Shown piece after piece: positions 7,736-52,918 of a DNA stretch of 64,000 nt (position 1 is the first letter of the stretch; each line of letters begins with the position of its first letter). The stretch is from Escherichia coli 042 (GTDB taxonomy: Bacteria; Pseudomonadota; Gammaproteobacteria; Enterobacterales; Enterobacteriaceae): NCBI RefSeq assembly GCF_000027125.1, contig NC_017626.1. One strand, written 5' to 3'. The notes below the pieces were generated by a model, which was not told the DNA's origin, ran no database searches, and saw nothing but the letters and a program-made list of their open reading frames with translations. The position numbers were made by a program, and so were the translations under genes.

Positions 7736-7925
7736 CCCATGATCGCTAGCACGATAATCATTCACAAAACCACCTTAAGACATGCTAATCCACTGGTCAG
7801 AACAGTTTAAGATGAGAAAAATTCTGTGACGCTTGCCAACATTTCTGATGATTAGCATTCCCTTCGCCATTTCCCTGAGCAAACTTTAGCTATTCTTATC
7901 AATTATGCTTATGGGAGATCTACAG

Positions 7926-9206
7926 ATGATGCCTACGCTTGCTCCACCATCTGTCCTTTCGGCTCCCCAGCGCCGCTGCCAGATCTTGCTGACGCTCTTT
8001 CAGCCGGGGTTGACCGCCACCACGGCAACTTTCAGCGAGCTTAATGGTGTGGATGATGATATTGCCAGTCTTGATATCAGCGAAACAGGACGGGAGATCC
8101 TGCGCTATCATCAACTCACACTGACTACTGGTTATGACGGTAGCTACCGGGTTGAAGGTACAGTGCTTAACCAACGTTTGTGTTTATTTCACTGGCTACG
8201 ACGTGGTTTCCGTCTGTGTCCGTCATTTATTACCAGCCATTTCACCCCCGCCCTGAAGAGTGAACTGAAGCGGCGCGGAATTGCGCGTAACTTTTACGAC
8301 GATACCAATCTACAAGCGTTAGTGAATCTCTGCTCCCGACGGCTGCAAAAACACTTTGAAACGCGCGATATTCATTTCCTGTGTCTGTATCTGCAATATT
8401 GTTTGCTGCAACACCACGCTGGAATTACGCCTCAGTTTAATCCGCTCCAACGTCGCTGGGCGGAATCCTGCCTTGAATTTCAGGTAGCGCAGGAAATTGG
8501 ACGCCACTGGCAGCGTCGAGCGCTCCAGCCTGTACCGCCTGATGAGCCACTGTTCATGGCATTACTTTTTTCCATGTTGCGGGTTCCCGATCCACTGCGG
8601 GATGCGCATCAGCGGGACAGACAACTGCGTCAGTCTATCAAACGTCTGGTAAACCATTTTCGTGAGCTGGGAAATGTTCGTTTTTATGATGAACAGGGGT
8701 TGTGCGATCAGCTTTATACCCACCTCGCCCAGGCGTTAAATCGCAGTTTGTTTGCCATCGGTATTGATAACACCCTGCCGGAAGAGTTCGCCCGCCTGTA
8801 TCCACGCCTGGTGCGCACCACCCGCGCGGCGCTGACCGGATTTGAAAGTGAATACGGCGTCCATCTTTCTGATGAGGAAAGCGGTCTGGTCGCGGTGATT
8901 TTTGGTGCCTGGCTAATGCAGGAAAACGACCTGCATGAGAAACAGATTATTCTACTGACCGGGAATGATAGTGAGCGAGAAGCGCAGATTGAGCAGCAGC
9001 TACGCGAACTAACGTTACTGCCGCTCAATATTAAACATATGTCGGTAAAGGTATTTTTGCAGACAGGCGCTCCGCGCGGCGCGGCACTGATTATTGCTCC
9101 TTATACCATGCCGTTACCGCTCTTTTCACCACCGCTGATCTATACGGACCTGACGCTGACAACACATCAACAGGAGCAGATCCGCAAAATACTCGAATCA
9201 GCATGA
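7926..9206 (+). CDS. csiE: Stationary-phase inducible protein CsiE (PRD-containing regulator-like)
   Basis: ORF 7905..9206; the recognised CsiE N-terminus MMPTLAPPSVLSAPQRR begins 7 codons in. The 3' end overlaps hcaT tail-to-tail. Confidence 0.85.
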   Translation: MMPTLAPPSVLSAPQRRCQILLTLFQPGLTATTATFSELNGVDDDIASLDISETGREILRYHQLTLTTGYDGSYRVEGTVLNQRLCLFHWLRRGFRLCPSFITSHFTPALKSELKRRGIARNFYDDTNLQALVNLCSRRLQKHFETRDIHFLCLYLQYCLLQHHAGITPQFNPLQRRWAESCLEFQVAQEIGRHWQRRALQPVPPDEPLFMALLFSMLRVPDPLRDAHQRDRQLRQSIKRLVNHFRELGNVRFYDEQGLCDQLYTHLAQALNRSLFAIGIDNTLPEEFARLYPRLVRTTRAALTGFESEYGVHLSDEESGLVAVIFGAWLMQENDLHEKQIILLTGNDSEREAQIEQQLRELTLLPLNIKHMSVKVFLQTGAPRGAALIIAPYTMPLPLFSPPLIYTDLTLTTHQQEQIRKILESA

Positions 9207-13399: not shown

Positions 13400-13719
13400 T
13401 GAATCGAATTTATGCGTGTCCCGTTGCGGATGTGCCGGAGGGTGAGGCTCTCCGGATCGATACCTCGCCCGTCATCGCCTTGTTCAACGTGGGCGGCGAG
13501 TTTTATGCCATTAACGATCGTTGCAGCCATGGTAATGCGTCGATGTCAGAAGGGTATCTGGAAGATGACGCCACGGTGGAGTGCCCGCTGCACGCCGCCA
13601 GTTTTTGCCTGAAAACGGGGAAAGCGTTATGCCTGCCCGCCACCGATCCGCTAACCACTTATCCAGTACACGTTGAAGGTGGTGACATCTTCATCGACTT
13701 ACCGGAGGCGCAGCCATGA
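13399..13719 (+). CDS. hcaC: Rieske ferredoxin component of 3-phenylpropionate dioxygenase
   Basis: 106 aa with [11 protein letters not shown]...CPLH Rieske motif. Confidence 0.9.
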
Positions 13720-14528
13720 GCGATCTGCATAACGAGTCCATCTTTATTACCGGCGGCGGATCGGGATTAGGCCTGGCGCTGGTCGAGCGATTTATCGAAG
13801 AAGGCGCGCAGGTTGCCACGCTGGAACTGTCGGCGGCAAAAGTCGCCAGTCTGCGTCAGCGATTTGGCGAACATATTCTGGCGGTGGAAGGTAACGTGAC
13901 CTGCTATGCCGATTATCAACGCGCGGTTAATCAGATCCTGACTCGTTCTGGCAAGCTGGATTGTTTTATCGGCAATGCGGGCATCTGGGATCACAATGCC
14001 TCACTGGTTAACACTCCCGCAGAGACGCTCGAAACCGGCTTCCACGAGCTGTTTAATGTCAACGTACTCGGTTACCTGCTGGGCGCAAAAGCCTGCGCTC
14101 CGGCGTTAATCGCCAGTGAAGGCAGCATGATTTTCACACTGTCAAACGCCGCCTGGTATCCCGGCGGCGGTGGCCCGCTGTACACCGCCAGTAAACATGC
14201 CGCAACCGGACTTATTCGCCAACTGGCTTATGAACTGGCACCGAAAGTGCGGGTGAATGGCGTCGGCCCGTGTGGTATGGCCAGCGACCTGCGCGGCCCA
14301 CAGGCGCTCGGGCAAAGTGAAACCTCGATAATGCAGTCTCTGACGCCGGAGAAAATTGCCGCCATATTACCGCTGCAATTTTTCCCGCAACCGGCGGATT
14401 TTACGGGTCCGTATGTGATGTTGGCATCGCGGCGCAATAATCGCGCATTAAGCGGTGTGATGATCAACGCTGATGCGGGTTTAGCGATTCGCGGCATTCG
14501 CCACGTAGCGGCTGGGCTGGATCTTTAA
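13716..14528 (+). CDS. hcaB: cis-dihydrodiol dehydrogenase (SDR family)
   Basis: 270 aa with [11 protein letters not shown]-binding motif and YTASK catalytic motif. Confidence 0.9.
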
Positions 14529-15740
<1,212 letters not shown>

Positions 15741-15836
15741 CCAGGATAATTAGCGAATATCTCAACGCCTGGGGCGTGGCGAGGTACCAGAGTGTGTATT
15801 ACGTTTAAATCACATTATCTTGCAAAGGGATTGGTT

Positions 15837-16259
15837 ATGAACTCACTACGTTATTTTGATTTTGGTGCTGCACGCCCCGTTTTGTTATTAATTGCCCGTA
15901 TCGCCGTGGTCTTGATTTTCATTATTTTTGGTTTTCCCAAAATGATGGGCTTTGACGGTACGGTCCAATATATGGCCTCGCTGGGCGCGCCAATGCCAAT
16001 GCTGGCAGCGATTATTGCGGTAGTTATGGAAGTGCCCGCCGCAATATTAATCGTGCTTGGTTTTTTCACCCGTCCGCTGGCGGTGCTGTTTATTTTCTAC
16101 ACGCTGGGTACGGCGGTAATTGGTCACCATTACTGGGATATGACCGGCGATGCGGTTGGGCCAAATATGATTAATTTCTGGAAGAATGTCAGTATCGCTG
16201 GCGCATTCCTGCTGTTGGCAATTACCGGGCCGGGGGCAATTTCTCTCGATCGGCGTTAA
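15837..16259 (+). CDS. yphA: DoxX-family inner-membrane protein YphA
   Basis: ORF 15792..16259; the likely start is the internal [15 protein letters not shown] (140 aa); hydrophobic throughout. Confidence 0.8.
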
Positions 16260-16305: not shown

Positions 16306-17178
16306 TTACAGTAACGCAACCCGCAACGACATCTCTGAAGTTGTTGATTCCCCTGGTGCAAGCGCAATGAGATCACCCCCTTCCGGGCGATGATGGTCAT
16401 CTGGCGCATGGCTCATCGGTTCCAGACAGAAGAAATCAAACGCATATCCTTTATCAAACGCCGGGTCGGAAACAAAGATGAAATAACATGGTGCAGGTGG
16501 CGTCGTTTCCATGATGATGGCGTACCCCTCCTGCGGCTGCTCGATGCGGGACTGACCATTCCATCCGGCAAAGCCATTGTTTACCCACTGGCGCGGCAAC
16601 GGCGCGAGCTGGTTGAAATCCAGCTCCTGCGGTAGCTGCTCGCAAAACTCACCCGCCAGCCACTGCTCCCGCTCCAGCCAGTAACCGCTCGCCTGCGCCT
16701 GAATCCGCGTTTGTGGTGACAACGGAAAATAAGGATGCCAGCCGGTACCAAATGGCAGCGTCTCTGCCCCTTGATTGGTGACAGAGAGCGTCACCGTCAG
16801 CGTATCTGCCGTTAAATGAAACGCCTGACTTACCCGATAGTGATAAACACCGCTGCGATGTTCATACACCAGACACAAGCTATCTTCGCTGCGCGAGACA
16901 CATTGCCACTGCCCCAGCCAGCCGTCGCCGTGCAGATAGTGCGCATCCCACTCAACATTCGGTTGCAGTTGATACTCACGCCCCTGCCAGACAAAACGGT
17001 TGCCACTCACCCGGTTTGCAAACGGCACCAGAGGGAAACAAGAGGCATCGGTTGCCACACCGCTTTTTTTACCGGGACGTAAGAGCGGCGTCGCGTCACG
17101 CCAGAAGCCTTCGATGACGCCGCCCCGGTCAGAAACGTCCAGCTTTAGCGGCCCGTGAGATAACGTATAGATGGTCAT
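16306..17178 (-). CDS. yphB: Aldose 1-epimerase (mutarotase)-family protein YphB
   Basis: 290-aa ORF MTIYTLSHGPLKLDVSDRGGVIEGFW, galactose-mutarotase-like fold family by recall. Confidence 0.85.
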   Translation of the reverse strand: MTIYTLSHGPLKLDVSDRGGVIEGFWRDATPLLRPGKKSGVATDASCFPLVPFANRVSGNRFVWQGREYQLQPNVEWDAHYLHGDGWLGQWQCVSRSEDSLCLVYEHRSGVYHYRVSQAFHLTADTLTVTLSVTNQGAETLPFGTGWHPYFPLSPQTRIQAQASGYWLEREQWLAGEFCEQLPQELDFNQLAPLPRQWVNNGFAGWNGQSRIEQPQEGYAIIMETTPPAPCYFIFVSDPAFDKGYAFDFFCLEPMSHAPDDHHRPEGGDLIALAPGESTTSEMSLRVALL

Positions 17179-17189
17179 CAGCTGACTCC

Positions 17190-18251
17190 TTAATCCGGGA
17201 AGTTAATCACAACTTTCCCGCATTTACCGCTCGCCATCAGCGCATAGGCATCTCCTGCCTGTTCCAGCGTGAAGCGATGGGTAATGGCGTTACGCGGCCA
17301 CAGTTTCCAGTCCGTTAAATCGTGGGCGCATTTTTCCATATGGAACAGACTGGTCACCCAGGAGCCAATAATCCGCCGTTGATGATGCATCAGATCAGCG
17401 CTAACCTCGAACTCCACTTTTCCGGTTTCTCCGATGTAAACCACCCGTCCCCAGTCAGCAGTGGATTGCAACGCCAGTAAGCGACCTGCGGCATTACCGG
17501 AACAATCGAGCGCAACATCCGCGCCACCGTGGGTAAGTTCGGCGATAATCTGCGGCAGACCTTCGGTCGTTGCTAAATAGCCATGATCCATCACCCCTAA
17601 CTGTTTCGCCATCGCCAGACGTTCCGGCAGCATATCAACGCCGATGATCCTTTTTGCACCGCGACCTTTCGCCAGCATCATCGCCATCATGCCGACCGGC
17701 CCCAGACCGACCACCAGCACGTTATCACTGCCGGAAACTTCGCCGCGCAAAATCCCTTCATACGCTGTACCAACGCCGCAACTGATAAACGCACCATCTT
17801 CATAGCTCAGCGCGTCCGGGAGCAGGATCAGATCTTTTTCTTCCGCCAGCAGGTATTCAGCATGGCCGCCGTCACGCTGCCAGCCGTAAGCCGCTTTTCC
17901 TTCGCCAGTACAAGAGATAGGAAAACCACGACGGCAGTTCGGGCAAAAACCACAGCCAGAAATATGATACACCAGCACACGGTCGCCCTCTTTAAAATGG
18001 CGGCAGCCTTGCCCCATCGCCACAATTTGCCCGCACGGTTCATGACCGTTGATAAATCCCTGGTATAACGGTTTATCGGGTGCCGCCGCCGTAGCGCGGT
18101 GTTGGTGGTAGATATAGTGGACATCGCTTCCGCAAATTCCGGAGGATTTCATTTTGATCAGTACCTGGTTAATCCCCGGCGTCGGCACCGCAACTTCCCG
18201 CAGATCGACGGTCGAATTTCCTGGTAAATAAGCTGCCAGCATCGTTTTCAT
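17190..18251 (-). CDS. yphC: Zn-dependent alcohol/sugar dehydrogenase (MDR family) YphC
   Basis: ORF 17190..18284; likely start at the internal MKTMLAAYLPGN; GHEPCG zinc-binding motif and a Rossmann GxGxxG (VVGLGPVG) are present. Confidence 0.85.
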   Translation of the reverse strand: MKTMLAAYLPGNSTVDLREVAVPTPGINQVLIKMKSSGICGSDVHYIYHQHRATAAAPDKPLYQGFINGHEPCGQIVAMGQGCRHFKEGDRVLVYHISGCGFCPNCRRGFPISCTGEGKAAYGWQRDGGHAEYLLAEEKDLILLPDALSYEDGAFISCGVGTAYEGILRGEVSGSDNVLVVGLGPVGMMAMMLAKGRGAKRIIGVDMLPERLAMAKQLGVMDHGYLATTEGLPQIIAELTHGGADVALDCSGNAAGRLLALQSTADWGRVVYIGETGKVEFEVSADLMHHQRRIIGSWVTSLFHMEKCAHDLTDWKLWPRNAITHRFTLEQAGDAYALMASGKCGKVVINFPD

Positions 18252-18316
18252 AAATCCCTCATTAACAATACGATTAATTTTCATCCCTGCCGCACCCGCG
18301 CCAGGGACGTTTAGGT

Positions 18317-19315
18317 TTAGCGTTTCGCTTTACTGCTTCGCTGAGTCAGCAAGATATTCGCCAGCACCGCCACCACGATGATGACGCCGCGCACCACCTG
18401 CTGGAAAAAGGAGTTAATCCCGAGCAGCACCAGACCGTTACCGATTAGCGTAATCACCAACACACCAAGCAATGTACCGAACAGGGAACCGCGACCACCG
18501 GAAAGCGCCGTACCGCCAACCACGACCGCGGCGATGACGTCAAACTCCAGACCGTTTGCGGCACCTGCGTTACCGGAACCGAGGCGCGCCGCCAACAAAA
18601 TGCCGGTCACCGCTGCTAATAATCCCGAAAGGGTAAAAATAAGAATGCGTACCCGACGAACGTTAATACCGCATAACTGCGCCGCCGTGGCATTACCGCC
18701 AACGGCAAAAACCGAGCGCCCGAAGGCGGTTTTGCGGCTAATGAACACAAACAGCGCAAACAGCACCATCATGATCAGCGCGGATACCGGCACACCGAGA
18801 AATTGTCCGCCCAGCCAGTCCAGCACTTCGTTTTCGTCAATCGGCACTGGCAAGGCGTTCGTCATAAATAGCCCCATTCCGCGCAGGGCGCTCCATAAAC
18901 CCAGCGTGGCAACAAAACTTGGCACGTTAAACACGCCGCGCAGCACCCCGGCGAGCGTTCCCATCAGCGCGCCTAACAGCAACACCAGCAGACAAGCAAT
19001 CGCCAGCGGAACCTCAAATTGCAGCAAAAATGCCAGGCACACCGAGACAAAAGCCACCATCGGCCCAACGCTGACATCAATTTCCCCGGAGATAATAATC
19101 AGCGTCATCGCCCAGGCGGCGATCCCAATGGTGGCGGCATCGCGCAGCACGTTCATCTGGTTATTCAATGAGATAAAGCCAGGCGCGTTCAGAGAGAAGA
19201 CCAGATAAAGAATGGCGATCACCACCAGCAAACCGATCTCATTAATATGGCGACTGACAAATTGTTTGAGCGAGACGCTCTTGCCCTGCGGCAATGGTAA
19301 TGACGAAGCAGACAT
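18317..19315 (-). CDS. yphD: Sugar ABC transporter permease YphD
   Basis: 332 aa, multi-pass hydrophobic, ribose/xylose-type permease family. Confidence 0.88.
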   Translation of the reverse strand: MSASSLPLPQGKSVSLKQFVSRHINEIGLLVVIAILYLVFSLNAPGFISLNNQMNVLRDAATIGIAAWAMTLIIISGEIDVSVGPMVAFVSVCLAFLLQFEVPLAIACLLVLLLGALMGTLAGVLRGVFNVPSFVATLGLWSALRGMGLFMTNALPVPIDENEVLDWLGGQFLGVPVSALIMMVLFALFVFISRKTAFGRSVFAVGGNATAAQLCGINVRRVRILIFTLSGLLAAVTGILLAARLGSGNAGAANGLEFDVIAAVVVGGTALSGGRGSLFGTLLGVLVITLIGNGLVLLGINSFFQQVVRGVIIVVAVLANILLTQRSSKAKR

Positions 19316-19339
19316 CTTCAGGTTCCTCGGTAAAATTCA

Positions 19340-20851
19340 TCAGTGCACAGACAGAATGGCGGACATCAGCTCATCCACATTGACCGGCGAGTGAAACTCC
19401 TGCGAGAACGTACCGTGCTGTAATAACAGGATGCGGTCACACACCAGCGGCAACTCCTCCACTTCACTGGAGATAAACACCACGCTTTTTCCTTCGGCAG
19501 CCAGCTCGCGGACAATACGGTAAATCTGCTGTTTGGCTTCGATATCGACGCCGCGCGTTGGCTCGTCGAGCAACAAAATCTGGCTGGCAGCATAGACCCA
19601 ACGACCGATCACCACTTTTTGCTGATTGCCACCAGAAAGCGTGCCGATGGGCGTTTCGCTACTGGCGGCCTTGACCGTCATCCGCTGCATCACCTCTTCG
19701 GTCAGGCGGCGGATGGTGGACCATTGCAGCACACCGTTGGCGCTGATTTTTTGCCGATTGGTCAGCACTGTATTTTCGTCAACGCCCAGCCAGGGAATGA
19801 TCCCCGCTTCTTTGCGGTTTTCTGGCGTATAGCCAATGCCGCGTTTCAGCATGTCGCCGTAATCGGGGCGAGTGATTTTCTCGCCGTTGATAACAATTTC
19901 GCCCTGTTCATACGTCTCCAGCCCAACTATGGCTTTCAACAATTCACTGCGCCCTGCCCCCAGCAGGCCAGCAATGCCGAGTACTTCGCCACGACGGAGC
20001 GTAAAGCTGATATCCTCCAGCTTGGGCTTATGGCGTAACGCACGGACTTCCAGCACGGCCTGATCGACAATTTCCTGAGGGGAAACCGGCGCAATATCAA
20101 CGTGATCGCGCCCGAGCATTAGCGACACAATATGATGCGTGGAGGTGTTTTCGAGCATCACATCGCCCGCCACCTGACCATCGCGCATAACGGTGGCACA
20201 GGAGGCAATGCGGCGGATTTCTTCCATCCGGTGGCTGACATAAATCACCGCCACGCCCAGTGCCGACATCTTTTTAACCGCGCTGATCACCAGTTCAACT
20301 TCCGCACTGGCAAGCGAACTGGTAGGTTCATCAAGAATGACCACGCGCGGCTCGCCCTTCATCACCCGCGCAATTTCCACCAGTTGCTTTTGCGCCGGGC
20401 TTAGCGTTGAAACAAGTTGTTCAGGGCTAACGTCAACGCCCAGCGCCTGTAAGCAACGTTGGGCATCCTGCGCCATTTGCAGGTAATCAATCATGCCGTT
20501 GCGGCGGGGCCACTGACCGAGGCAGAGGTTTTCCGCCACCGTCAGTCCCTCCACCAGACTTAACTCCTGATAAACCGCACGAACCCCCAGTTCAGCGGCA
20601 CGGCGAGTCAACGTAGCTTCGTCACCTTCCAGTCGCGTCTCGCCAATCCAGATATCACCGCTATCCGGACGTTCACTGCCGGTAAGCATTCGAATGAGGG
20701 TCGATTTGCCCGCGCCGTTTTTGCCTAACAGCGCACGAACTTCGCCTTTATTGAGCGTGAAGTTAACGTTATCCAACGCAACGACGCCGGGATAACGCTT
20801 ATTTCCTGCCACCACTTTTGCTACCGGGACTGCCTCTGTTGCCGTGAACAT
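19340..20851 (-). CDS. yphE: Sugar ABC transporter ATP-binding protein YphE (tandem ABC domains)
   Basis: 503 aa with two Walker A motifs (GKNGAGKST and a second in the C-terminal half) and LSGG signature. Confidence 0.9.
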   Translation of the reverse strand: MFTATEAVPVAKVVAGNKRYPGVVALDNVNFTLNKGEVRALLGKNGAGKSTLIRMLTGSERPDSGDIWIGETRLEGDEATLTRRAAELGVRAVYQELSLVEGLTVAENLCLGQWPRRNGMIDYLQMAQDAQRCLQALGVDVSPEQLVSTLSPAQKQLVEIARVMKGEPRVVILDEPTSSLASAEVELVISAVKKMSALGVAVIYVSHRMEEIRRIASCATVMRDGQVAGDVMLENTSTHHIVSLMLGRDHVDIAPVSPQEIVDQAVLEVRALRHKPKLEDISFTLRRGEVLGIAGLLGAGRSELLKAIVGLETYEQGEIVINGEKITRPDYGDMLKRGIGYTPENRKEAGIIPWLGVDENTVLTNRQKISANGVLQWSTIRRLTEEVMQRMTVKAASSETPIGTLSGGNQQKVVIGRWVYAASQILLLDEPTRGVDIEAKQQIYRIVRELAAEGKSVVFISSEVEELPLVCDRILLLQHGTFSQEFHSPVNVDELMSAILSVH

Positions 20852-20873
20852 AGGGACCTCTGCGAATCAGCGA

Positions 20874-21857
20874 TTAGGGCAGACCATCAACGTGCGTTGC
20901 CAGCCACTGTTTACCGTCTTCCGTTTTGGTATAGAGATCGATAGGCACCTGAATCACTTTTTCACCGTCGGCTTGTTTGTTGATAACCTTCAATGTTTGC
21001 GCGAAGACAGCATTGCCCATTTTCTTACCGGAAATATCCACCACCGCTTTCAACACCTGATTGTTTTCCAGCTCCTGAGCAATTTCAGTGGTCATATCCG
21101 AACCGAAAACAGCAATTTTTCCGGCCTGATTTTGATTACGTACCGCTTTTACCGCGCCGAGTGTCGCACCACCCGATTCTCCCATAATGGCGTTGAGATC
21201 CGGCGTGGAGATAATTAGTTTTTCACCAACGGAAATCGCTTTATCTAAAACAGTCCCTTCCTGATTAGCGACAATTTGCGCGCCGGGAACGCGGGATTTT
21301 AATACTTCTTCAAATCCTTTACGTCGCTGCACACAAACTTCAAAGGCTTCGCAATTGATGACGGCAATTTTCGGCTGGTCAATTTTATTGGCAATAAAAT
21401 AATCGGCGGCAGCGTTACCCAGTTTTTTACCAAATTCCAGCGGATCGCCGACCAGATACGCCGAGACATATTTATCGACGCCTTTTTGATTAATACAGGT
21501 GTTGTAGCAAATCACCGGAATACCCGCTTCACTGGCGCGACGAACGGTACGGCTACTGCCATTTTCAGACACTGCCGATAAAATAATGGCATCGACATTA
21601 CGCGCCACGAGGGTATCAACAAAGGTACTTTCTTTCGAAATATCACCCTGTGCGTTAGTTTCAATTAACTGTACCTGTACTGAAGAATCTTTTGCCGCAT
21701 CCTGAACGCCCTGACGCACGCCAGCGTAATATCCCTGAGTATCAAGGTATATTGCGCCAATGGTCATTTCTTTATCCGCAGCTCTGGCAAATAGTGCGCT
21801 ACCTAATAGCGTAGCCATTAATAATAGATTACGGGTTGTTGTCATTTTTTTAGGCAT
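20874..21857 (-). CDS. yphF: Periplasmic sugar-binding protein YphF
   Basis: 327 aa with N-terminal signal peptide (MPKKMTTTRNLLLMATLLGSALFARA); periplasmic binding protein family. Confidence 0.88.
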   Translation of the reverse strand: MPKKMTTTRNLLLMATLLGSALFARAADKEMTIGAIYLDTQGYYAGVRQGVQDAAKDSSVQVQLIETNAQGDISKESTFVDTLVARNVDAIILSAVSENGSSRTVRRASEAGIPVICYNTCINQKGVDKYVSAYLVGDPLEFGKKLGNAAADYFIANKIDQPKIAVINCEAFEVCVQRRKGFEEVLKSRVPGAQIVANQEGTVLDKAISVGEKLIISTPDLNAIMGESGGATLGAVKAVRNQNQAGKIAVFGSDMTTEIAQELENNQVLKAVVDISGKKMGNAVFAQTLKVINKQADGEKVIQVPIDLYTKTEDGKQWLATHVDGLP

Positions 21858-21953
21858 AGTGCCTCCTGTAGGGTTTTTATTTACAACGGCTTATTCTAAT
21901 TATTTTGTGATGAGCGGCAGCGCGTGCCGCTCAAATATTACAGTTAATAGGGT

Positions 21954-24900
21954 TTAGTGAACGCGGTTAAAAATAAAAGGCATCACAGTGGTGAATAATG
22001 CCGCTTTCGGCCAGGCCGGATTAATCGCCGTCAATTCAGCGCGAGCAGATTCATAGTGCGCAGCCTCCCCGAGTCCCGCGGACGCCAGCATCGCCACCAT
22101 CAGGCATTTTTCTTTATGCTGCTGTTGTAAATCGCCATACAGCGACAACAGGTCAGGTTGTGAAACAGCAAAGAAATCCGCCTCAATACTGGTTTTCGCC
22201 ATCTCTTGCGCCCACTGTTTCATTTCACTAAACAGTTGCTGTGCGGTTTGCTGTTCACCCAGCAGTCGCAGCGCCATTCCTTGCCAGAAGAGATAATCAA
22301 CCGGCTGATCGTTGTAATAACTGTGAATGTTAATGGTGCGATCGCCAGTCGCCGCCAGACGTAAACAACGCATCGCTTCAGTTTGATCGCCCTGCGCGTT
22401 GGCGCATATCGCCTGCCAGAACCAGATGTCGTTATCAGTTTGCCCCGGTAAACGGCCTTCGCTTAAATTCTCCGGATAATGCAGCGCGGCATGAAGCAGT
22501 TCGCTGGCCTGCTGCGGCTCTCTGGCATCAAGATGCTGCCAGGCGCGTAATAACTGGTTGAGGATAAACTGACTGGTGATCTTCCCTTCCCCGCCTTCCC
22601 ACGGGTGGAATTTGCGCGTGGCGAGAATGTCCGCCGCTTTGTCTGCCTGACCCGTGAGATGCCACAAATTGAGCAGTTCTGCGGTCATGTCGTCGCGTTT
22701 CAGCGCAATTTCCAGATTATTTTCCAGACGCGCCAGTCGTTTCTCCGGTGTGGTTCCACTTAACTTATCCAGCAAATCCCGTTCGAAAAGCAGACGTGCA
22801 TCCTGCGGCGCAAGCTGATAAGCATTATCAAGATAACGCGCGGCCAGCTCATAATCGTGTTGCTTATTCCACGCATGGATCGCCAACCCGCGCCAGCCAT
22901 CGGCAAACTCTGGCGACATCTCTACGCAACGTTGCCATAAAGTAATGGCTTTGTTGTAGCTGCGCTTGTTGTAGTAGAAGCAGGCCAGTAAATGACGGGC
23001 AAACCAGCACTCTTCAATACTCTCCAGCGCCGCCACTTCTTCCAGCGTATTCGGGAAACGGACAAACTGTGGGAAGACATCAATGGCTTTTGCGACCAGT
23101 TCGCCGCGTTCAGCTTTCGGCAGCAAGCTGGCTTGCAGGTAAAGCGGCAGCGTGCGCTGGCAGTCCAGTGCGTTCAGCATCTCTGCCGCCAGGGTGGGCA
23201 TTCCCCAGTTAATCAGTTGCCCGGCGGTCACCAGGGCGTTAACGTCGCGTCCCTGACACAGACCGCGCCACTGCGCGAAGGCTGATTCGCTACGACCATC
23301 GAACCAGTTCAGCCACCACAGAGTGGCGTTCAGCGGATAATCACGCAGCAGTTTCTCACGCTGCAAACGCGCGTTGCCCTGACGACCACTTAACACCAGC
23401 AGCAGATTATGCAGGCAAAGCACTTCCTGATTGGTTGGGCAGGCGCGAAGACTTTGTTGGCAAAAATCCAGACCAGCGTCGAAGTTACCATTACGCGCCG
23501 CCAGCCGTGCCAGACCATAATAGCCACCTGCTTTACTGTTGCCGCTCCAGACCGCACGCCAGAAATCCTCTTCGGCTTGTTGATATTGCCCCTGACGTTC
23601 GTAAGCACTGGCGCGAATCAAACTCGCCTGTCCGCACTGCGGATTTTTGTTCAGCGCATGTGCGCGTTTCAGCGCCTGAGTGGCATACGCCACCGCTTGC
23701 GGGAAATCTGCGCGGTTATATTCCAGCATCGCCAGCGCCAGGTTACAGCGATAATCCAGCGGATCCAGCGCCACGCCGCGCAGGTAGTAATCGAACGGTG
23801 AACGGCTGGCGTGATGATATTGCTCCAGATGCTGACCGATAAACCAGGCTTCATCTGTACTGGTAATGTCTTGTGCTGCCAGTGGCGCTTTGGCGACGTC
23901 CGGCAACGGCAACTCTTGCGGCTGATGTTCCTGATAACTCAGTATGATATTGCCGTCGGCATCGGAGAGCTCAATGGTCAGTCTGTCAGGATTGATACCG
24001 TGCAACACGCCCTGGATGGCGGTCGCTGGCATCAGTGCCACGGCATCATCAAGTAACGCGTTGCATTTGCCGATTTCGCGGATCGCCAGGCGGTATCCGT
24101 TCAACGGAGAGATGGCATACAGCCCCCACTCAATCCCCCGCTCACTACGCTGGAGTTTTATCACCGCATCGCGGGAGGCATTTTGCACCATGCCCAGAGA
24201 ATGATAAGGCAGGAAATACTGCTCGAAACGCTTCTCTTCGTACGCATCAAGCCAGGTAAAATCAGGCTGGTTATCGGCAAAAATACCGGTCATCAGTTCG
24301 ATATACGGGCCGTTATTGTCGGTCAGACTCTTATCCCACGCCTGGCCAAACTCACTGTGTCCCCAACTCCACTGTTTTTTACCTGGCGCAATATGGTGGT
24401 TGGCAACGTGCAGCAAACCGCCATCTTCATCGTGACACCACGCGCCGACAAAATCGTACTGCGATTTTTCAGCCATATATGAGGTTGGAACGGGCACATT
24501 TTTATAGCGAGAAATGTCCACTCCAGAGGAGTAGTCCACTTTGTAGTAAGTGCCGGTGGCGATGGGGAAAGCGGAGACGGCCCGTTTGCCGTGATCAAAG
24601 ACCGCCGTTACATCCGGCGGGAAGACGCTCTGATGCCCTTCACCCCCTTTCACTGCCGGGTTGGCCCACCACAAGAAATGACGCGGAGTGGCGTTGCCGT
24701 TATAGACGCGGCTGGCGATTTCCAGAGCCGCCCGGTCAGGGCGCAGGGTGAAACCTGTCATCACCTGTAAACCGTGCATCGGCTCCGTTTCGCCGACCCA
24801 CACGGTTTGTGCGCCGTCTTCATGGGCTTCGAGGGTGAAATCGACGGGCATAAAGGTGGTCGGGCGATGGTGTTGCGGCCAGTTAAACTCAATCCCGCCG

Positions 24901-25235
24901 GAGATCCACGGTCCCAGCAGCCCCACCAGCGCAGGTTTAATGACTTCATTGTGATAGACAAAATCGCGCTGTTTCACTTTATCCCATGCGCGATGCACCC
25001 GACCGCCCAGTTCCGGCAGGATCATCACTTTAATGTAGTCGTTTTCCAGCCACACCGCCTGCCAGGATTTCAGGGTTTTCTGCTCGCTCAGCGTATCGGT
25101 CACGCCGTAGGGATAAACCGCGCCGGACGATCCCTGATAAACGCGATTTTCCAGGAACATGGGATGTATATCCTGCGGCCCGGTTTCATAGGTCGGGATC
25201 TCAACGCGCTCTTGCCACACTTTTACTGGAGTCAT
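21954..25235 (-). CDS. yphG: Large TPR-repeat protein YphG, function unknown
   Basis: ORF 21954..25328; likely start at the internal MTPVKVWQERVEIPTYE (about 1093 aa). The C-terminal half is rich in TPR-like repeats. Confidence 0.85.
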   Translation of the reverse strand: MTPVKVWQERVEIPTYETGPQDIHPMFLENRVYQGSSGAVYPYGVTDTLSEQKTLKSWQAVWLENDYIKVMILPELGGRVHRAWDKVKQRDFVYHNEVIKPALVGLLGPWISGGIEFNWPQHHRPTTFMPVDFTLEAHEDGAQTVWVGETEPMHGLQVMTGFTLRPDRAALEIASRVYNGNATPRHFLWWANPAVKGGEGHQSVFPPDVTAVFDHGKRAVSAFPIATGTYYKVDYSSGVDISRYKNVPVPTSYMAEKSQYDFVGAWCHDEDGGLLHVANHHIAPGKKQWSWGHSEFGQAWDKSLTDNNGPYIELMTGIFADNQPDFTWLDAYEEKRFEQYFLPYHSLGMVQNASRDAVIKLQRSERGIEWGLYAISPLNGYRLAIREIGKCNALLDDAVALMPATAIQGVLHGINPDRLTIELSDADGNIILSYQEHQPQELPLPDVAKAPLAAQDITSTDEAWFIGQHLEQYHHASRSPFDYYLRGVALDPLDYRCNLALAMLEYNRADFPQAVAYATQALKRAHALNKNPQCGQASLIRASAYERQGQYQQAEEDFWRAVWSGNSKAGGYYGLARLAARNGNFDAGLDFCQQSLRACPTNQEVLCLHNLLLVLSGRQGNARLQREKLLRDYPLNATLWWLNWFDGRSESAFAQWRGLCQGRDVNALVTAGQLINWGMPTLAAEMLNALDCQRTLPLYLQASLLPKAERGELVAKAIDVFPQFVRFPNTLEEVAALESIEECWFARHLLACFYYNKRSYNKAITLWQRCVEMSPEFADGWRGLAIHAWNKQHDYELAARYLDNAYQLAPQDARLLFERDLLDKLSGTTPEKRLARLENNLEIALKRDDMTAELLNLWHLTGQADKAADILATRKFHPWEGGEGKITSQFILNQLLRAWQHLDAREPQQASELLHAALHYPENLSEGRLPGQTDNDIWFWQAICANAQGDQTEAMRCLRLAATGDRTINIHSYYNDQPVDYLFWQGMALRLLGEQQTAQQLFSEMKQWAQEMAKTSIEADFFAVSQPDLLSLYGDLQQQHKEKCLMVAMLASAGLGEAAHYESARAELTAINPAWPKAALFTTVMPFIFNRVH

Positions 25236-25352
25236 GGTGCCCTCAATATTAACAAGACATACTGAATTAAAAGATTTGTGGCAGTGTATTGAACAATCTG
25301 GCAATGTTTTCGCGGAATAATCACGCAATTAACTAAACAAGGTTTAGTAAAG

Positions 25353-26546
25353 ATGAGAGCCTGCATTAACAATCAACAGATTCGCCACCATAACAAATGC
25401 GTGATTCTGGAACTGCTGTACCGGCAAAAGCGCGCCAATAAATCAACGCTGGCCCGGCTGGCGCAAATTTCGATTCCGGCGGTCAGTAATATTTTGCAGG
25501 AACTGGAAAGCGAAAAACGGGTGGTGAATATCGACGATGAAAGCCAGACGCGCGGGCATAGTAGCGGTACATGGCTGATTGCGCCGGAAGGTGACTGGAC
25601 GCTGTGCCTGAACGTGACGCCCACCAGTATTGAGTGTCAGGTTGCTAATGCTTGTTTAAGTCCGAAAGGTGAATTTGAGTATTTACAGATTGATGCACCG
25701 ACGCCGCAGGCGCTGCTGTCCGAAATCGAAAAATGCTGGCATCGCCACCGTAAATTGTGGCCGGACCGTACCATCAACCTGGCGCTGGCAATCCACGGTC
25801 AGGTTGATCCGGTGACTGGCGTGTCGCAAACCATGCCGCAAGCGCCGTGGACAACGCCGGTTGAGGTAAAATATCTGCTGGAAGAGAAGCTCGGCATTCG
25901 GGTGATGGTCGATAATGACTGCGTGATGCTGGCGCTGGCGGAGAAATGGCAAAATAATTCGCAGGGCCGGGATTTCTGCGTGATCAACGTTGATTACGGC
26001 ATTGGCTCGTCGTTCGTGATTAACGAGCAAATTTATCGCGGCAGTTTGTATGGTAGCGGACAAATTGGTCACACCATCGTTAATCCGGATGGCGTCGTCT
26101 GCGACTGCGGACGTTATGGCTGCCTGGAAACCGTCGCCTCGTTAAGCGCGTTAAAAAAACAGGCGCGGGTATGGCTAAAATCACAACCGGTTAATACTCA
26201 GCTTGATCCTGAAAAACTGACTACCGCGCAGTTAATCGCTGCCTGGCAGAGTGGAGAACCGTGGATCACCAGTTGGGTTGATCGCTCTGCCAACGCCATT
26301 GGTTTGAGTCTGTATAACTTCCTCAACATCCTCAATATTAATCAGATTTGGTTGTACGGTCGCAGTTGTGCCTTTGGTGAGCACTGGCTTAATACCATTA
26401 TTCGCCAGACGGGATTTAACCCGTTCGACCGCGATGAAGGACCGAGCGTGAAAGCAACGCAAATTGGCTTTGGGCTATTAAGCCGCGCACAACAGGTGCT
26501 GGGGATTGGCTATTTGTATGTTGAGGCACAGTTACGACAGATTTGA
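25353..26546 (+). CDS. yphH: ROK (NagC/XylR)-family transcriptional regulator YphH
   Basis: 397 aa with N-terminal HTH and a ROK sugar-kinase-like domain carrying the CDCGRYGCLE zinc motif. Confidence 0.88.
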   Translation: MRACINNQQIRHHNKCVILELLYRQKRANKSTLARLAQISIPAVSNILQELESEKRVVNIDDESQTRGHSSGTWLIAPEGDWTLCLNVTPTSIECQVANACLSPKGEFEYLQIDAPTPQALLSEIEKCWHRHRKLWPDRTINLALAIHGQVDPVTGVSQTMPQAPWTTPVEVKYLLEEKLGIRVMVDNDCVMLALAEKWQNNSQGRDFCVINVDYGIGSSFVINEQIYRGSLYGSGQIGHTIVNPDGVVCDCGRYGCLETVASLSALKKQARVWLKSQPVNTQLDPEKLTTAQLIAAWQSGEPWITSWVDRSANAIGLSLYNFLNILNINQIWLYGRSCAFGEHWLNTIIRQTGFNPFDRDEGPSVKATQIGFGLLSRAQQVLGIGYLYVEAQLRQI

Positions 26547-52520: not shown

Positions 52521-52918
52521 CCGAGGTAAAGTCTCCCCAAACCAAATTTCCACGCGCTATCGAAACGCCACTCCATTAGCTGCAATTTGAGCAAGCAAAG
52601 GGTTAGAGTGTCTCGTTTTTGTAAAGTTCCGTAACGCATCTGTTTTTGTTTGTCATGCTGTAGACGGATCATTATCTATCATTATAAGTCTACAGAATCT
52701 GAACATCGCATTATCTGTGTAGAAATGCCCATTTAACTGCCTGAAGAGTAACCCAACGGCCTTTTTATTTCACCACCTAATCCTCCACCAGCCAGTAACT
52801 TCTCTTTTTCTCGCCGCCCTGCGTCAGCGTGTTTAGCCACTGTAACAAATATTAAAATAGTAGGTGTTTAATCGCACAACATGATGCTATGCTGACCAAA
52901 CCGTGTTTAGTAAATTAA

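Follow-up and report, generated by a model that had tools for sequence, protein, structure and literature searches.

The yphB-yphH block of Escherichia coli as a candidate sugar locus centred on the DUF5107-TPR protein YphG

The seven genes yphB to yphH, at positions 16306-26546 (10,241 bp) of the 64-kb stretch of Escherichia coli 042 DNA analysed here (the window), may be read as a chromosomal sugar locus, repressed by YphH and serving a neutral sugar or a small glycoside (the galactose type being the likeliest), with YphG as its signature enzyme. We rate the chances of this reading as about even. That YphG is an enzyme acting on carbohydrates is, taken by itself, rather likely; any one specific reaction is assigned a much lower probability. 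The locus is already annotated in every E. coli genome, and there is nothing unusual about the families to which its transporter, its repressor, YphB and YphC belong, all of them well known. What is new is YphG, which matches no described system: a mutarotase fold is joined to a long TPR solenoid with conserved residues, identity stays at about 40% from E. coli to Bacteroidota and Clostridia, and the protein is paired with a porter of its own. An earlier examination of the same DNA (the original prediction) had regarded the cluster as the least characterised of the window, the one most likely to be undescribed, and YphG as lacking an assigned role to the reader's knowledge. This is borne out: no curated substrate or pathway was found for the cluster, the names used by RefSeq, NCBIfam and UniRef are generic, and neither papers, nor family names, nor solved-structure annotation give YphG a function. 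Literature searches on the yph genes, DUF5107, DUF4380, 5CD6/BDI_1685 and IPR033396/PF17128 likewise brought up nothing functional.

YphG is assigned by Pfam to DUF5107 (PF17128) over residues 39-324, and matches several TPR families from about residue 483 onward; no signal peptide is found. A first AlphaFold run, based on 42 close homologs, left the conserved loops poorly modelled, with a predicted local distance difference test (pLDDT) score of 74.5, and was superseded by an AlphaFold2 model built on 67 diverse homologs, which reaches a pLDDT of 94.7 and a predicted template modelling score (pTM) of 0.93. In this model a mutarotase-fold domain is followed by a small beta-sandwich and by the TPR solenoid. 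The division into a non-TPR N-terminal half and a TPR-rich C-terminal half, as originally predicted, is therefore retained, but the N-terminal half is not featureless, since it has the fold of galactose mutarotase. Foldseek matches the N-domain to 3mwx, 4bze and 3k25 (E 2e-9 to 1e-7, target template modelling scores 0.60-0.67). The nearest solved structure is 5cd6, which is also the sole real match in a profile search of the PDB, where matches to fibroblast growth factor receptors are noise; DUF5107 membership is found both by profile and by structural likeness to 5CD6. This structural genomics entry (BDI_1685 from Parabacteroides distasonis) is also a DUF5107-TPR protein, but differs from YphG by its length (575-580 aa), its low identity (17-21%) and its much shorter helical part; no published function was found for it.

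The beta-sandwich fold of the N-domain is common to GalM, to 3MWX and 4BZE from B. subtilis, to Slr1438 (3K25) and to YphB (3NRE). By our own reading of the alignments, the N-domain has towards its end an invariant Glu, within the motif E-x(7-8)-D-N-Q-P-D, that recalls the catalytic Glu of mutarotases. In contrast, YphG is only about 11% identical to aldose 1-epimerases, is three times longer, and carries a TPR half with conserved residues of its own. Separate, bona fide epimerases are encoded beside YphG, which argues against simple redundancy. In enzymes of the glycoside hydrolase (GH) families GH15, GH65 and GH92, too, a large helical domain comes after a beta-sandwich, and the family of YphG, like them, has members in polysaccharide utilisation loci; in YphG, conserved residues in both halves suggest an active site at the interface. 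Its helical half, however, is a TPR solenoid and not an (alpha/alpha)6 barrel: no structural match to the (alpha/alpha)6 barrel catalytic domain of these enzymes was obtained, the closest structures being protein-binding TPRs such as OGT, Ski3 and Hop. We know of no characterised sugar enzyme in which a mutarotase fold and a TPR solenoid are combined.

Conservation is highest in the first 460 residues, which are 51-57% identical between E. coli and homologs from Bacteroidota, Firmicutes and Bifidobacterium, compared to about 40% for the whole protein. The conserved polar residues of the beta domain are E64, N65, D85, K86, E116, N118, H122, H123, R124, N179, N192, H215, K286, K287, D306, E313, N322, Q323 and D325; five of them (E116, H123, N192, K287, E313) are retained in the distant paralog 5CD6. 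In the TPR half, W563, R782, E818, R833, F876 and E880 are invariant or nearly so, the last lying within a near-universal FHPWEGGEG loop (876-884). Judging from the aligned sequences, such a pattern would be expected of an active site to which both halves contribute.

The family is large. An exhaustive search with the N-terminal 475 residues of YphG returned 3919 representatives of 50% identity clusters at E <=0.001, and 893 at E <=1e-30; most of the best 150 homologs are about 1100 aa long. Members are distributed over Bacteroidota, Firmicutes and Proteobacteria, as well as Bifidobacterium, and include proteins from gut Bacteroidota, Clostridia and marine flavobacteria. For homologs at 39-43% identity, from Bacteroidota, Firmicutes and Bifidobacterium, the alignment begins at query residues 1-6 and leaves no room for a signal peptide, while many of those at 35-38% identity do have one. 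The locus of one secreted member contains SusC/SusD, a beta-helix protein, sulfatases and GH16; another features AXE1, AraC, Aldose_epim, GH36 and Sugar_tr genes; a third, also listed among the secreted ones, has Aldose_epim, an AraC-type regulator and a short-chain dehydrogenase/reductase. Two longer members carry an additional C-terminal domain, which resembles a carbohydrate-binding module of family CBM9 in P0265 (1417 aa) and is an endonuclease/exonuclease/phosphatase domain in P0240 (1399 aa). Secretion, association with SusCD and polysaccharide utilisation loci, and the CBM9 fusion indicate that the family behaves like carbohydrate-active enzymes. Both enterobacterial YphG clades occur in the Klebsiella oxytoca complex, the homolog of K. 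pasteurii being 74% and that of K. oxytoca 54% identical; sequence comparison suggests two paralogous systems here, possibly with different substrates.

The genes found within 5 kb of YphG homologs were surveyed in 80 species, including E. coli, by calling open reading frames (ORFs), clustering the neighbours and annotating the recurrent clusters. The most frequent partner is a XylE-like sugar porter of the major facilitator superfamily (MFS), present in 43 loci, directly adjacent to the YphG gene in 32 of them, and found in 39 of the 41 loci from Bacteroidota. There it is 43-57% identical to the enterobacterial MFS protein, being as conserved as YphG itself, which suggests, at the sequence level, that the two form an orthologous pair moving together. 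Genes for an ATP-binding cassette (ABC) importer of the CUT2 type are present in 12 loci, five from Gammaproteobacteria and seven from Firmicutes. An AraC regulator is found in 42 loci (adjacent in 21 of the 28 from Firmicutes), and a ROK regulator in 11, including 9 of the 10 from Gammaproteobacteria. Among the enzymes, a GH2 protein resembling the BT4151 exo-beta-1,4-galactosidase occurs in 27 loci (1213 bits, for an equivalog cut-off of 1500), GH35 in 8, GH97 in 5 and GH36 in 4. GalM-type epimerases are present in 9 loci, YphB-type epimerases in 7, and YphC-like dehydrogenases in 8, four of them in Clostridia, where one reaches 48% identity. The loci of marine flavobacteria also feature LacZ-type GH2, GH30, sulfatases and SGNH esterases. 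A consistent picture results over four phyla, where a sugar importer, a regulator and YphG form a recurring trio, often within galactoside or galactan loci.

In one locus from an uncultured Ruminococcaceae (L036, 13293-20585), the YphG homolog is followed, in this order, by a metallophosphoesterase, a weakly GH101-like protein, a protein with no assigned function, a YphC-like dehydrogenase, an enzyme of the mannitol dehydrogenase family (UxaB/UxuB-like) and one of the altronate/galactarate dehydratase family. These genes hint that this bacterium has a pathway by way of tagaturonate and altronate.

The remaining proteins of the block are readily classified, and the original assignments (a monosaccharide importer, a mutarotase-family protein, a medium-chain dehydrogenase and a ROK regulator) are borne out by family searches, structural relatives and motifs; the Pfam matches of all seven products exceed the curated thresholds. 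By its composition YphDEF is an importer of the ribose/galactose type (CUT2). YphF matches Peripla_BP_4 (PF13407, E 2e-33), and its N-terminus, MPKKMTTTRNLLLMATLLGSALFARA/ADKE, looks like a signal peptide, with ARA/AD at the end. Among solved structures 5HSG, deposited under a name that says only transporter, is closest to it (E 1e-24), and ribose- and galactose-binding proteins come next. YphD matches BPD_transp_2 (PF02653), with RbsC, AraH and YjfF as best NCBIfam resemblances, and YphE contains two ABC_tran stretches in 503 aa and resembles AraG, XylG, AlsA and MglA, in both cases under cut-off. The same three components, a Peripla_BP_4 protein with signal peptide, a BPD_transp_2 permease and a double ATPase of about 500 aa, make up RbsABC, AraFGH, XylFGH, AlsBAC, MglBAC and YtfQRT-YjfF. 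Unlike them, no YphDEF subunit attains an NCBIfam equivalog cut-off for ribose, arabinose, xylose, allose, galactose, galactofuranose or autoinducer-2 (AI-2): with the binding-protein models for allose, galactose, AI-2, ribose and galactofuranose, YphF scores only 44-64 bits, for cut-offs of 335-510. In a 2023 review yphFED is still given as a 'putative' transporter.

YphB matches Aldose_epim (PF01263, E 8e-52, 176.9 bits for a cut-off of 27) and is identical to PDB entry 3NRE over 288 residues (E 3e-202). YphC combines ADH_N (PF08240) and ADH_zinc_N (PF00107), with an additional match to Glu_dehyd_C at 41.5 bits. Its alignment features intact motifs of Zn-dependent enzymes: the catalytic Cys/His-Glu motifs ICGSD and GHEPCG, the structural-Zn pattern CxxCxxC...C, CGFCPNCRRGFPISC, and GLGPVG. 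Among solved structures, alcohol, xylitol, threonine and sorbitol dehydrogenases come closest (E about 1e-30 to 1e-37), and no NCBIfam equivalog attains its cut-off, all scoring far below; since the scores are similarly modest and no equivalog applies, the specificity of YphC cannot be read off. That YphB and YphC carry out the first catabolic steps, as originally suggested, is conjectural.

YphH contains a ROK domain (PF00480, E 2e-32), with the zinc motif CDCGRYGCLE, and an N-terminal helix-turn-helix (HTH), weakly matched as MarR-type. In the literature it figures as a third ROK repressor of E. coli, not yet characterised, placed on a small, long branch of its own and differing in the linker motif (PMC4288165, 2014), and a 2022 study included it when analysing E. 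coli transcription factors whose function is not known. An HTH together with a ROK domain featuring CxCGxxGCxE and a divergent placement by sugar genes are shared with NagC and Mlc of E. coli and XylR of Bacillus; the AT-rich palindromic candidate operator would be a further likeness. In contrast to NagC and Mlc, YphH stands on a separate branch and lies far under the cut-offs of their NCBIfam models, scoring about 110 bits where 530-650 are demanded.

The operator was searched by aligning nine orthologous yphH-yphG spacers, from E. coli and eight other species. Conserved blocks are present, the strongest being a perfect 7-3-7 palindrome, ACTAAACaagGTTTAGT, at 25332-25348. Its form, ACTAAAC-N3-GTTTAGT, has no mismatch in E. 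coli, where the inverted repeat spans 25329-25351, and is found at the same position, with 0-3 mismatches, in all eight of the other spacers. It may reasonably be taken, from its conservation, as the candidate YphH operator. A weaker copy at 21942-21958, upstream of yphF, shows three mismatches to ACTAAACNNNGTTTAGT; matches with up to three mismatches are expected by chance 1.8 times per 64-kb window. An equivalent copy occurs at the yphG/yphF junction in E. albertii (3 mismatches) and in Budvicia (1 mismatch), hinting that YphH may act also at this junction. A further match, with a single mismatch (ACCAAACCGTGTTTAGT, 52895-52911), is located between rseD/rpoE and nadB, 17 nt upstream of nadB; presumably a NadR box, it was set aside as a coincidence of similar half-sites. 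Aeromonas lacus has no ROK gene in its 15-kb locus (L006), where a 432-aa ORF with no Pfam match (7742-9040) lies directly upstream of the YphG homolog and two copies of the operator-like motif (8987-9087) are located at the 3' end of this ORF and in the short spacer.

Put together, the locus might work as follows. YphH would repress transcription in both directions from the palindrome at 25332-25348, perhaps also from 21942-21958, and would be released by the sugar or its product. YphFED would import a monosaccharide-sized neutral sugar or a small glycoside. The committed cytoplasmic step would be due to YphG, either by hydrolysis of a small galactoside or by ring-opening and re-closing, isomerisation or ring-form conversion, giving a common hexose; the active site would lie between the beta domain (E116, H122/H123, E313) and the TPR loops (E880, WEGGEG). 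YphB would equilibrate the anomers of the YphG product, while YphC, probably preferring nicotinamide adenine dinucleotide (NAD), would oxidise the sugar or a polyol aglycone. L-galactose (from the UxaB/UxaA-like genes of one Clostridia locus), galactofuranose ring conversion, galactosylglycerol and anhydro-sugars were considered as substrates, and none was adopted.

A number of results weigh against this interpretation. No experiment tying any yph gene to a substrate was found in the literature. In proteomics on levoglucosan the YphF protein goes up together with MalE, XylF, MglA, YtfQ and UgpB; since other sugar transporters rose alike, specific induction was rejected and the rise is read as general catabolite derepression. 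When the N-domain of YphG is compared by hhalign to the GalM and YphB profiles, probabilities of 0.1-0.4% are obtained, and Pfam gives no Aldose_epim match. As profile-profile signal is missing, the relation to mutarotases is at the fold level only; YphG is not to be filed as an aldose 1-epimerase, and catalytic equivalence is not shown. That the conserved residues of the TPR half face the beta-domain pocket is something that we infer. The galactose theme could reflect only the types of glycan loci that house the family, and a Pfam scan of 100 unclustered neighbours gave no further recurrent partner, the rest being heterogeneous. The promoter/terminator scan showed no excess over shuffled sequence, nothing in the control regions and no credible sigma-70 promoter or terminator. 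Finally, the full yphBCDEF set accompanies yphG in only four of the 79 other species, the closest relatives E. albertii, Enterobacter sp. BIGb0383, RIT691 and Budvicia, so that the unity of yphG with yphBCDEF, as originally presented, is upheld only in part.

According to a first alternative, the block is a mosaic: an ancestral yphH-yphG(-MFS)-yphB module would have been joined by a separately acquired yphFED-yphC, with its own control and possibly another substrate, and YphG would not act on what YphFED imports. A second enterobacterial clade, made up of Citrobacter, Hafnia and Enterobacter Ag1 at 54-56% YphG identity, lacks the ABC genes and yphC, and its locus consists of yphH, yphG, an MFS gene and a gene like yphB, while BIGb0383, RIT691 and Budvicia have both the ABC system and an MFS gene, the latter after yphB. 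The persistent partners of yphG are yphH, an epimerase of the YphB type and a sugar transporter, whether ABC or MFS. In E. coli, the 96-bp gap between yphG and yphF is the longest in the row, and GC content falls to 0.448 at 21000-21999 (this spacer together with the 5' region of yphF), compared to 0.53-0.57 elsewhere in the cluster, a dip that is possibly the seam between two modules. The spacer contains a stem-loop at 21911-21933, made by the fully complementary (100%) inverted repeat TGAGCGGCA/TGCCGCTCA, with a 9-bp stem, a 5-nt loop and no U-tract; the predicted folding energy of the spacer is -22.4 kcal/mol (z = -2.8), and the stem is kept, with a variable loop, in four species (E. coli, E. 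albertii, Enterobacter sp. and RIT691). The presence of the stem-loop and of a second operator-like site makes separate control of the two parts possible. The latter site, on the other hand, implies shared control by YphH and not independence. The other gaps, from yphF to yphB, measure 11-32 bp, as is typical of one operon, and the order yphG-F-E-D-C-B is maintained in five species, E. coli and the four relatives, down to 66% YphG identity. Moreover, the seven Firmicutes loci with CUT2 ABC genes within 5 kb of YphG homologs, and the four with YphC-like dehydrogenases, show that genes of both kinds recur by YphG in Clostridia, which favours a functional link. On this evidence a mosaic origin with unconnected functions is considered unlikely, and a single sugar locus is preferred.

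A second alternative concerns YphG itself, which could be a non-enzymatic, sugar-sensing adaptor or scaffold: the mutarotase-like domain would bind the sugar and the TPR half a partner (transporter, regulator or enzyme), in order to tune uptake or transcription. More than half of YphG is a true TPR solenoid, most similar to the protein-binding ones mentioned above, its gene almost always adjoins a regulator and/or a transporter, and profile-level likeness to catalytic mutarotases is lacking. ROK regulators such as Mlc are, besides, controlled by protein sequestration. Yet the class of the regulator switches, from AraC in Bacteroidota and Firmicutes to ROK in Gammaproteobacteria, while YphG stays conserved, and the AraC partners beside YphG have a ligand-binding domain of their own. 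The secreted distant homologs, the polysaccharide utilisation loci and the CBM9 module are hard to square with cytoplasmic signalling, and the beta domain is as densely set with invariant residues (Glu, His, Asp, Lys, Asn and Trp) as is typical where a sugar undergoes catalysis. An adaptor role is therefore held to be quite improbable, and an enzymatic YphG is maintained.

The least probable alternative is that E. coli keeps the locus only as a remnant, cryptic or decaying, which no longer serves any physiological substrate: the literature reports no phenotype or inducer, E. coli lacks the dedicated MFS partner gene of its relatives and IS1 interrupts yphF in one commensal strain, but all seven reading frames are intact in the window and in the annotated genomes inspected, query cover is at least 80% in 5370 of 5426 complete genomes, at 95-100% identity, and the YphF protein is detectably expressed and regulated. 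The interrupted copy belongs to E. coli SCU-313, a commensal human isolate, where IS1A (L089, 4769-6529) splits yphF into two pseudogene fragments, the other genes of the cluster being intact.

The coordinates of all features are reported in Table 1. The column "strand" is marked by a dot for features assigned to neither strand.

Table 1. Features of the yph block of E. coli 042; positions refer to the 64-kb window.
Feature	Position	Strand	Basis or remark
yphB, aldose-1-epimerase family, 290 aa	16306-17178	-	ORF, RefSeq, Pfam, PDB match
yphC, Zn-dependent medium-chain dehydrogenase, 364 aa	17190-18284	-	Pfam, motifs
yphD, ribose/arabinose-type ABC permease, 332 aa	18317-19315	-	Pfam
yphE, fused tandem ABC ATPase, 503 aa	19340-20851	-	Pfam
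yphF, periplasmic sugar-binding protein with signal peptide, 327 aa	20874-21857	-	Pfam, N-terminus
GC-rich stem-loop in the yphG-yphF spacer	21911-21933	-	Inverted repeat, folding, conservation
Second, weaker candidate YphH operator copy	21942-21958	.	3 mismatches; overlaps yphG stop
yphG, cytoplasmic DUF5107-TPR protein, 1093 aa (stop included)	21954-25235	-	ORF, annotation, model
YphG residues 460-1093, all-helical TPR solenoid, about 30 helices	21957-23858	-	Model
YphG residues 350-436, second small all-beta domain, seven strands	23928-24188	-	Model secondary structure
YphG residues 1-345, beta-rich DUF5107 domain, mutarotase fold, most conserved part	24201-25235	-	
Divergent yphG/yphH control region, 117 bp	25236-25352	.	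ORF gap, nine orthologous spacers
Candidate YphH operator, palindrome ACTAAAC-aag-GTTTAGT	25332-25348	.	Ends 4 nt before yphH ATG
yphH, ROK-family repressor, 397 aa	25353-26546	+	Pfam, motif

The gene positions and the length of the divergent spacer, as originally given, are exact according to both the ORF list and RefSeq, whose annotation of identical E. coli DNA agrees with the list. The count of "seven co-directional genes" has to be corrected: six consecutive genes, yphB to yphG, are on the minus strand, six are the ones originally named, and yphH is divergent. For yphG, the mechanical list reports an ORF of 1124 aa that begins with a TTG at 25328 and would take up nearly the whole length of the divergent spacer; the start at the ATG at 25235, giving 1093 aa, fits RefSeq and the N-termini of the homologs.

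The description of the block as a conserved chromosomal locus, neither mobile nor related to defence, is confirmed. It is present in 5425 of the 5426 complete E. coli genomes, with 5440 places, all chromosomal, and no plasmid copy, and the PADLOC scan gave no defence signal apart from a generic ABC-ATPase similarity of YphE. In E. coli it is flanked by yphA and the hca operon on one side and by glyA and hmp on the other. What follows yphB varies: in E. coli, yphA and the hca operon stand between yphB and hcaT (13716-16259 of the window); E. albertii, which has no hca operon, features yphA directly, then ORFs of 379 and 433 aa, matching hcaT and csiE by length and position only; in Enterobacter sp. 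BIGb0383 (L003, 18982-20397), RIT691 (L004, 19130-20566) and Budvicia (L005, 19326-20771) the XylE-like MFS gene is found.

Beyond E. coli, we tentatively propose, with somewhat less confidence than for the locus itself, that YphG and its roughly 3900 relatives constitute a new family of carbohydrate-active enzymes, where mutarotase-fold chemistry would be combined with a TPR solenoid closing over the site; together with the XylE-like porter, YphG would form an old two-gene module, moved among Bacteroidota, Firmicutes and Proteobacteria and serving a galactan-derived sugar or small galactoside absent from current pathway maps. The E. coli locus is near-universal in the species and is among its few sugar systems with no substrate assigned. 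It offers a tractable test bed, since its repressor with the candidate operator, its binding protein and its putative cytoplasmic enzyme are all open to direct study. That E. coli still has orphan sugar loci will not surprise specialists, and, should this one be a routine rare-sugar operon, the gain would be limited to one more annotated cluster of E. coli y-genes. The family, however, is large, widespread and directly testable, and YphG stands in it for a very large set of proteins with no assigned function, from Clostridia, bifidobacteria, marine flavobacteria and the Bacteroidota of the gut. Should YphG be an enzyme, it would represent a new catalytic architecture in carbohydrate metabolism, and would fill a gap in the entry of galactan- and galactoside-derived sugars into the metabolism of gut and marine bacteria.

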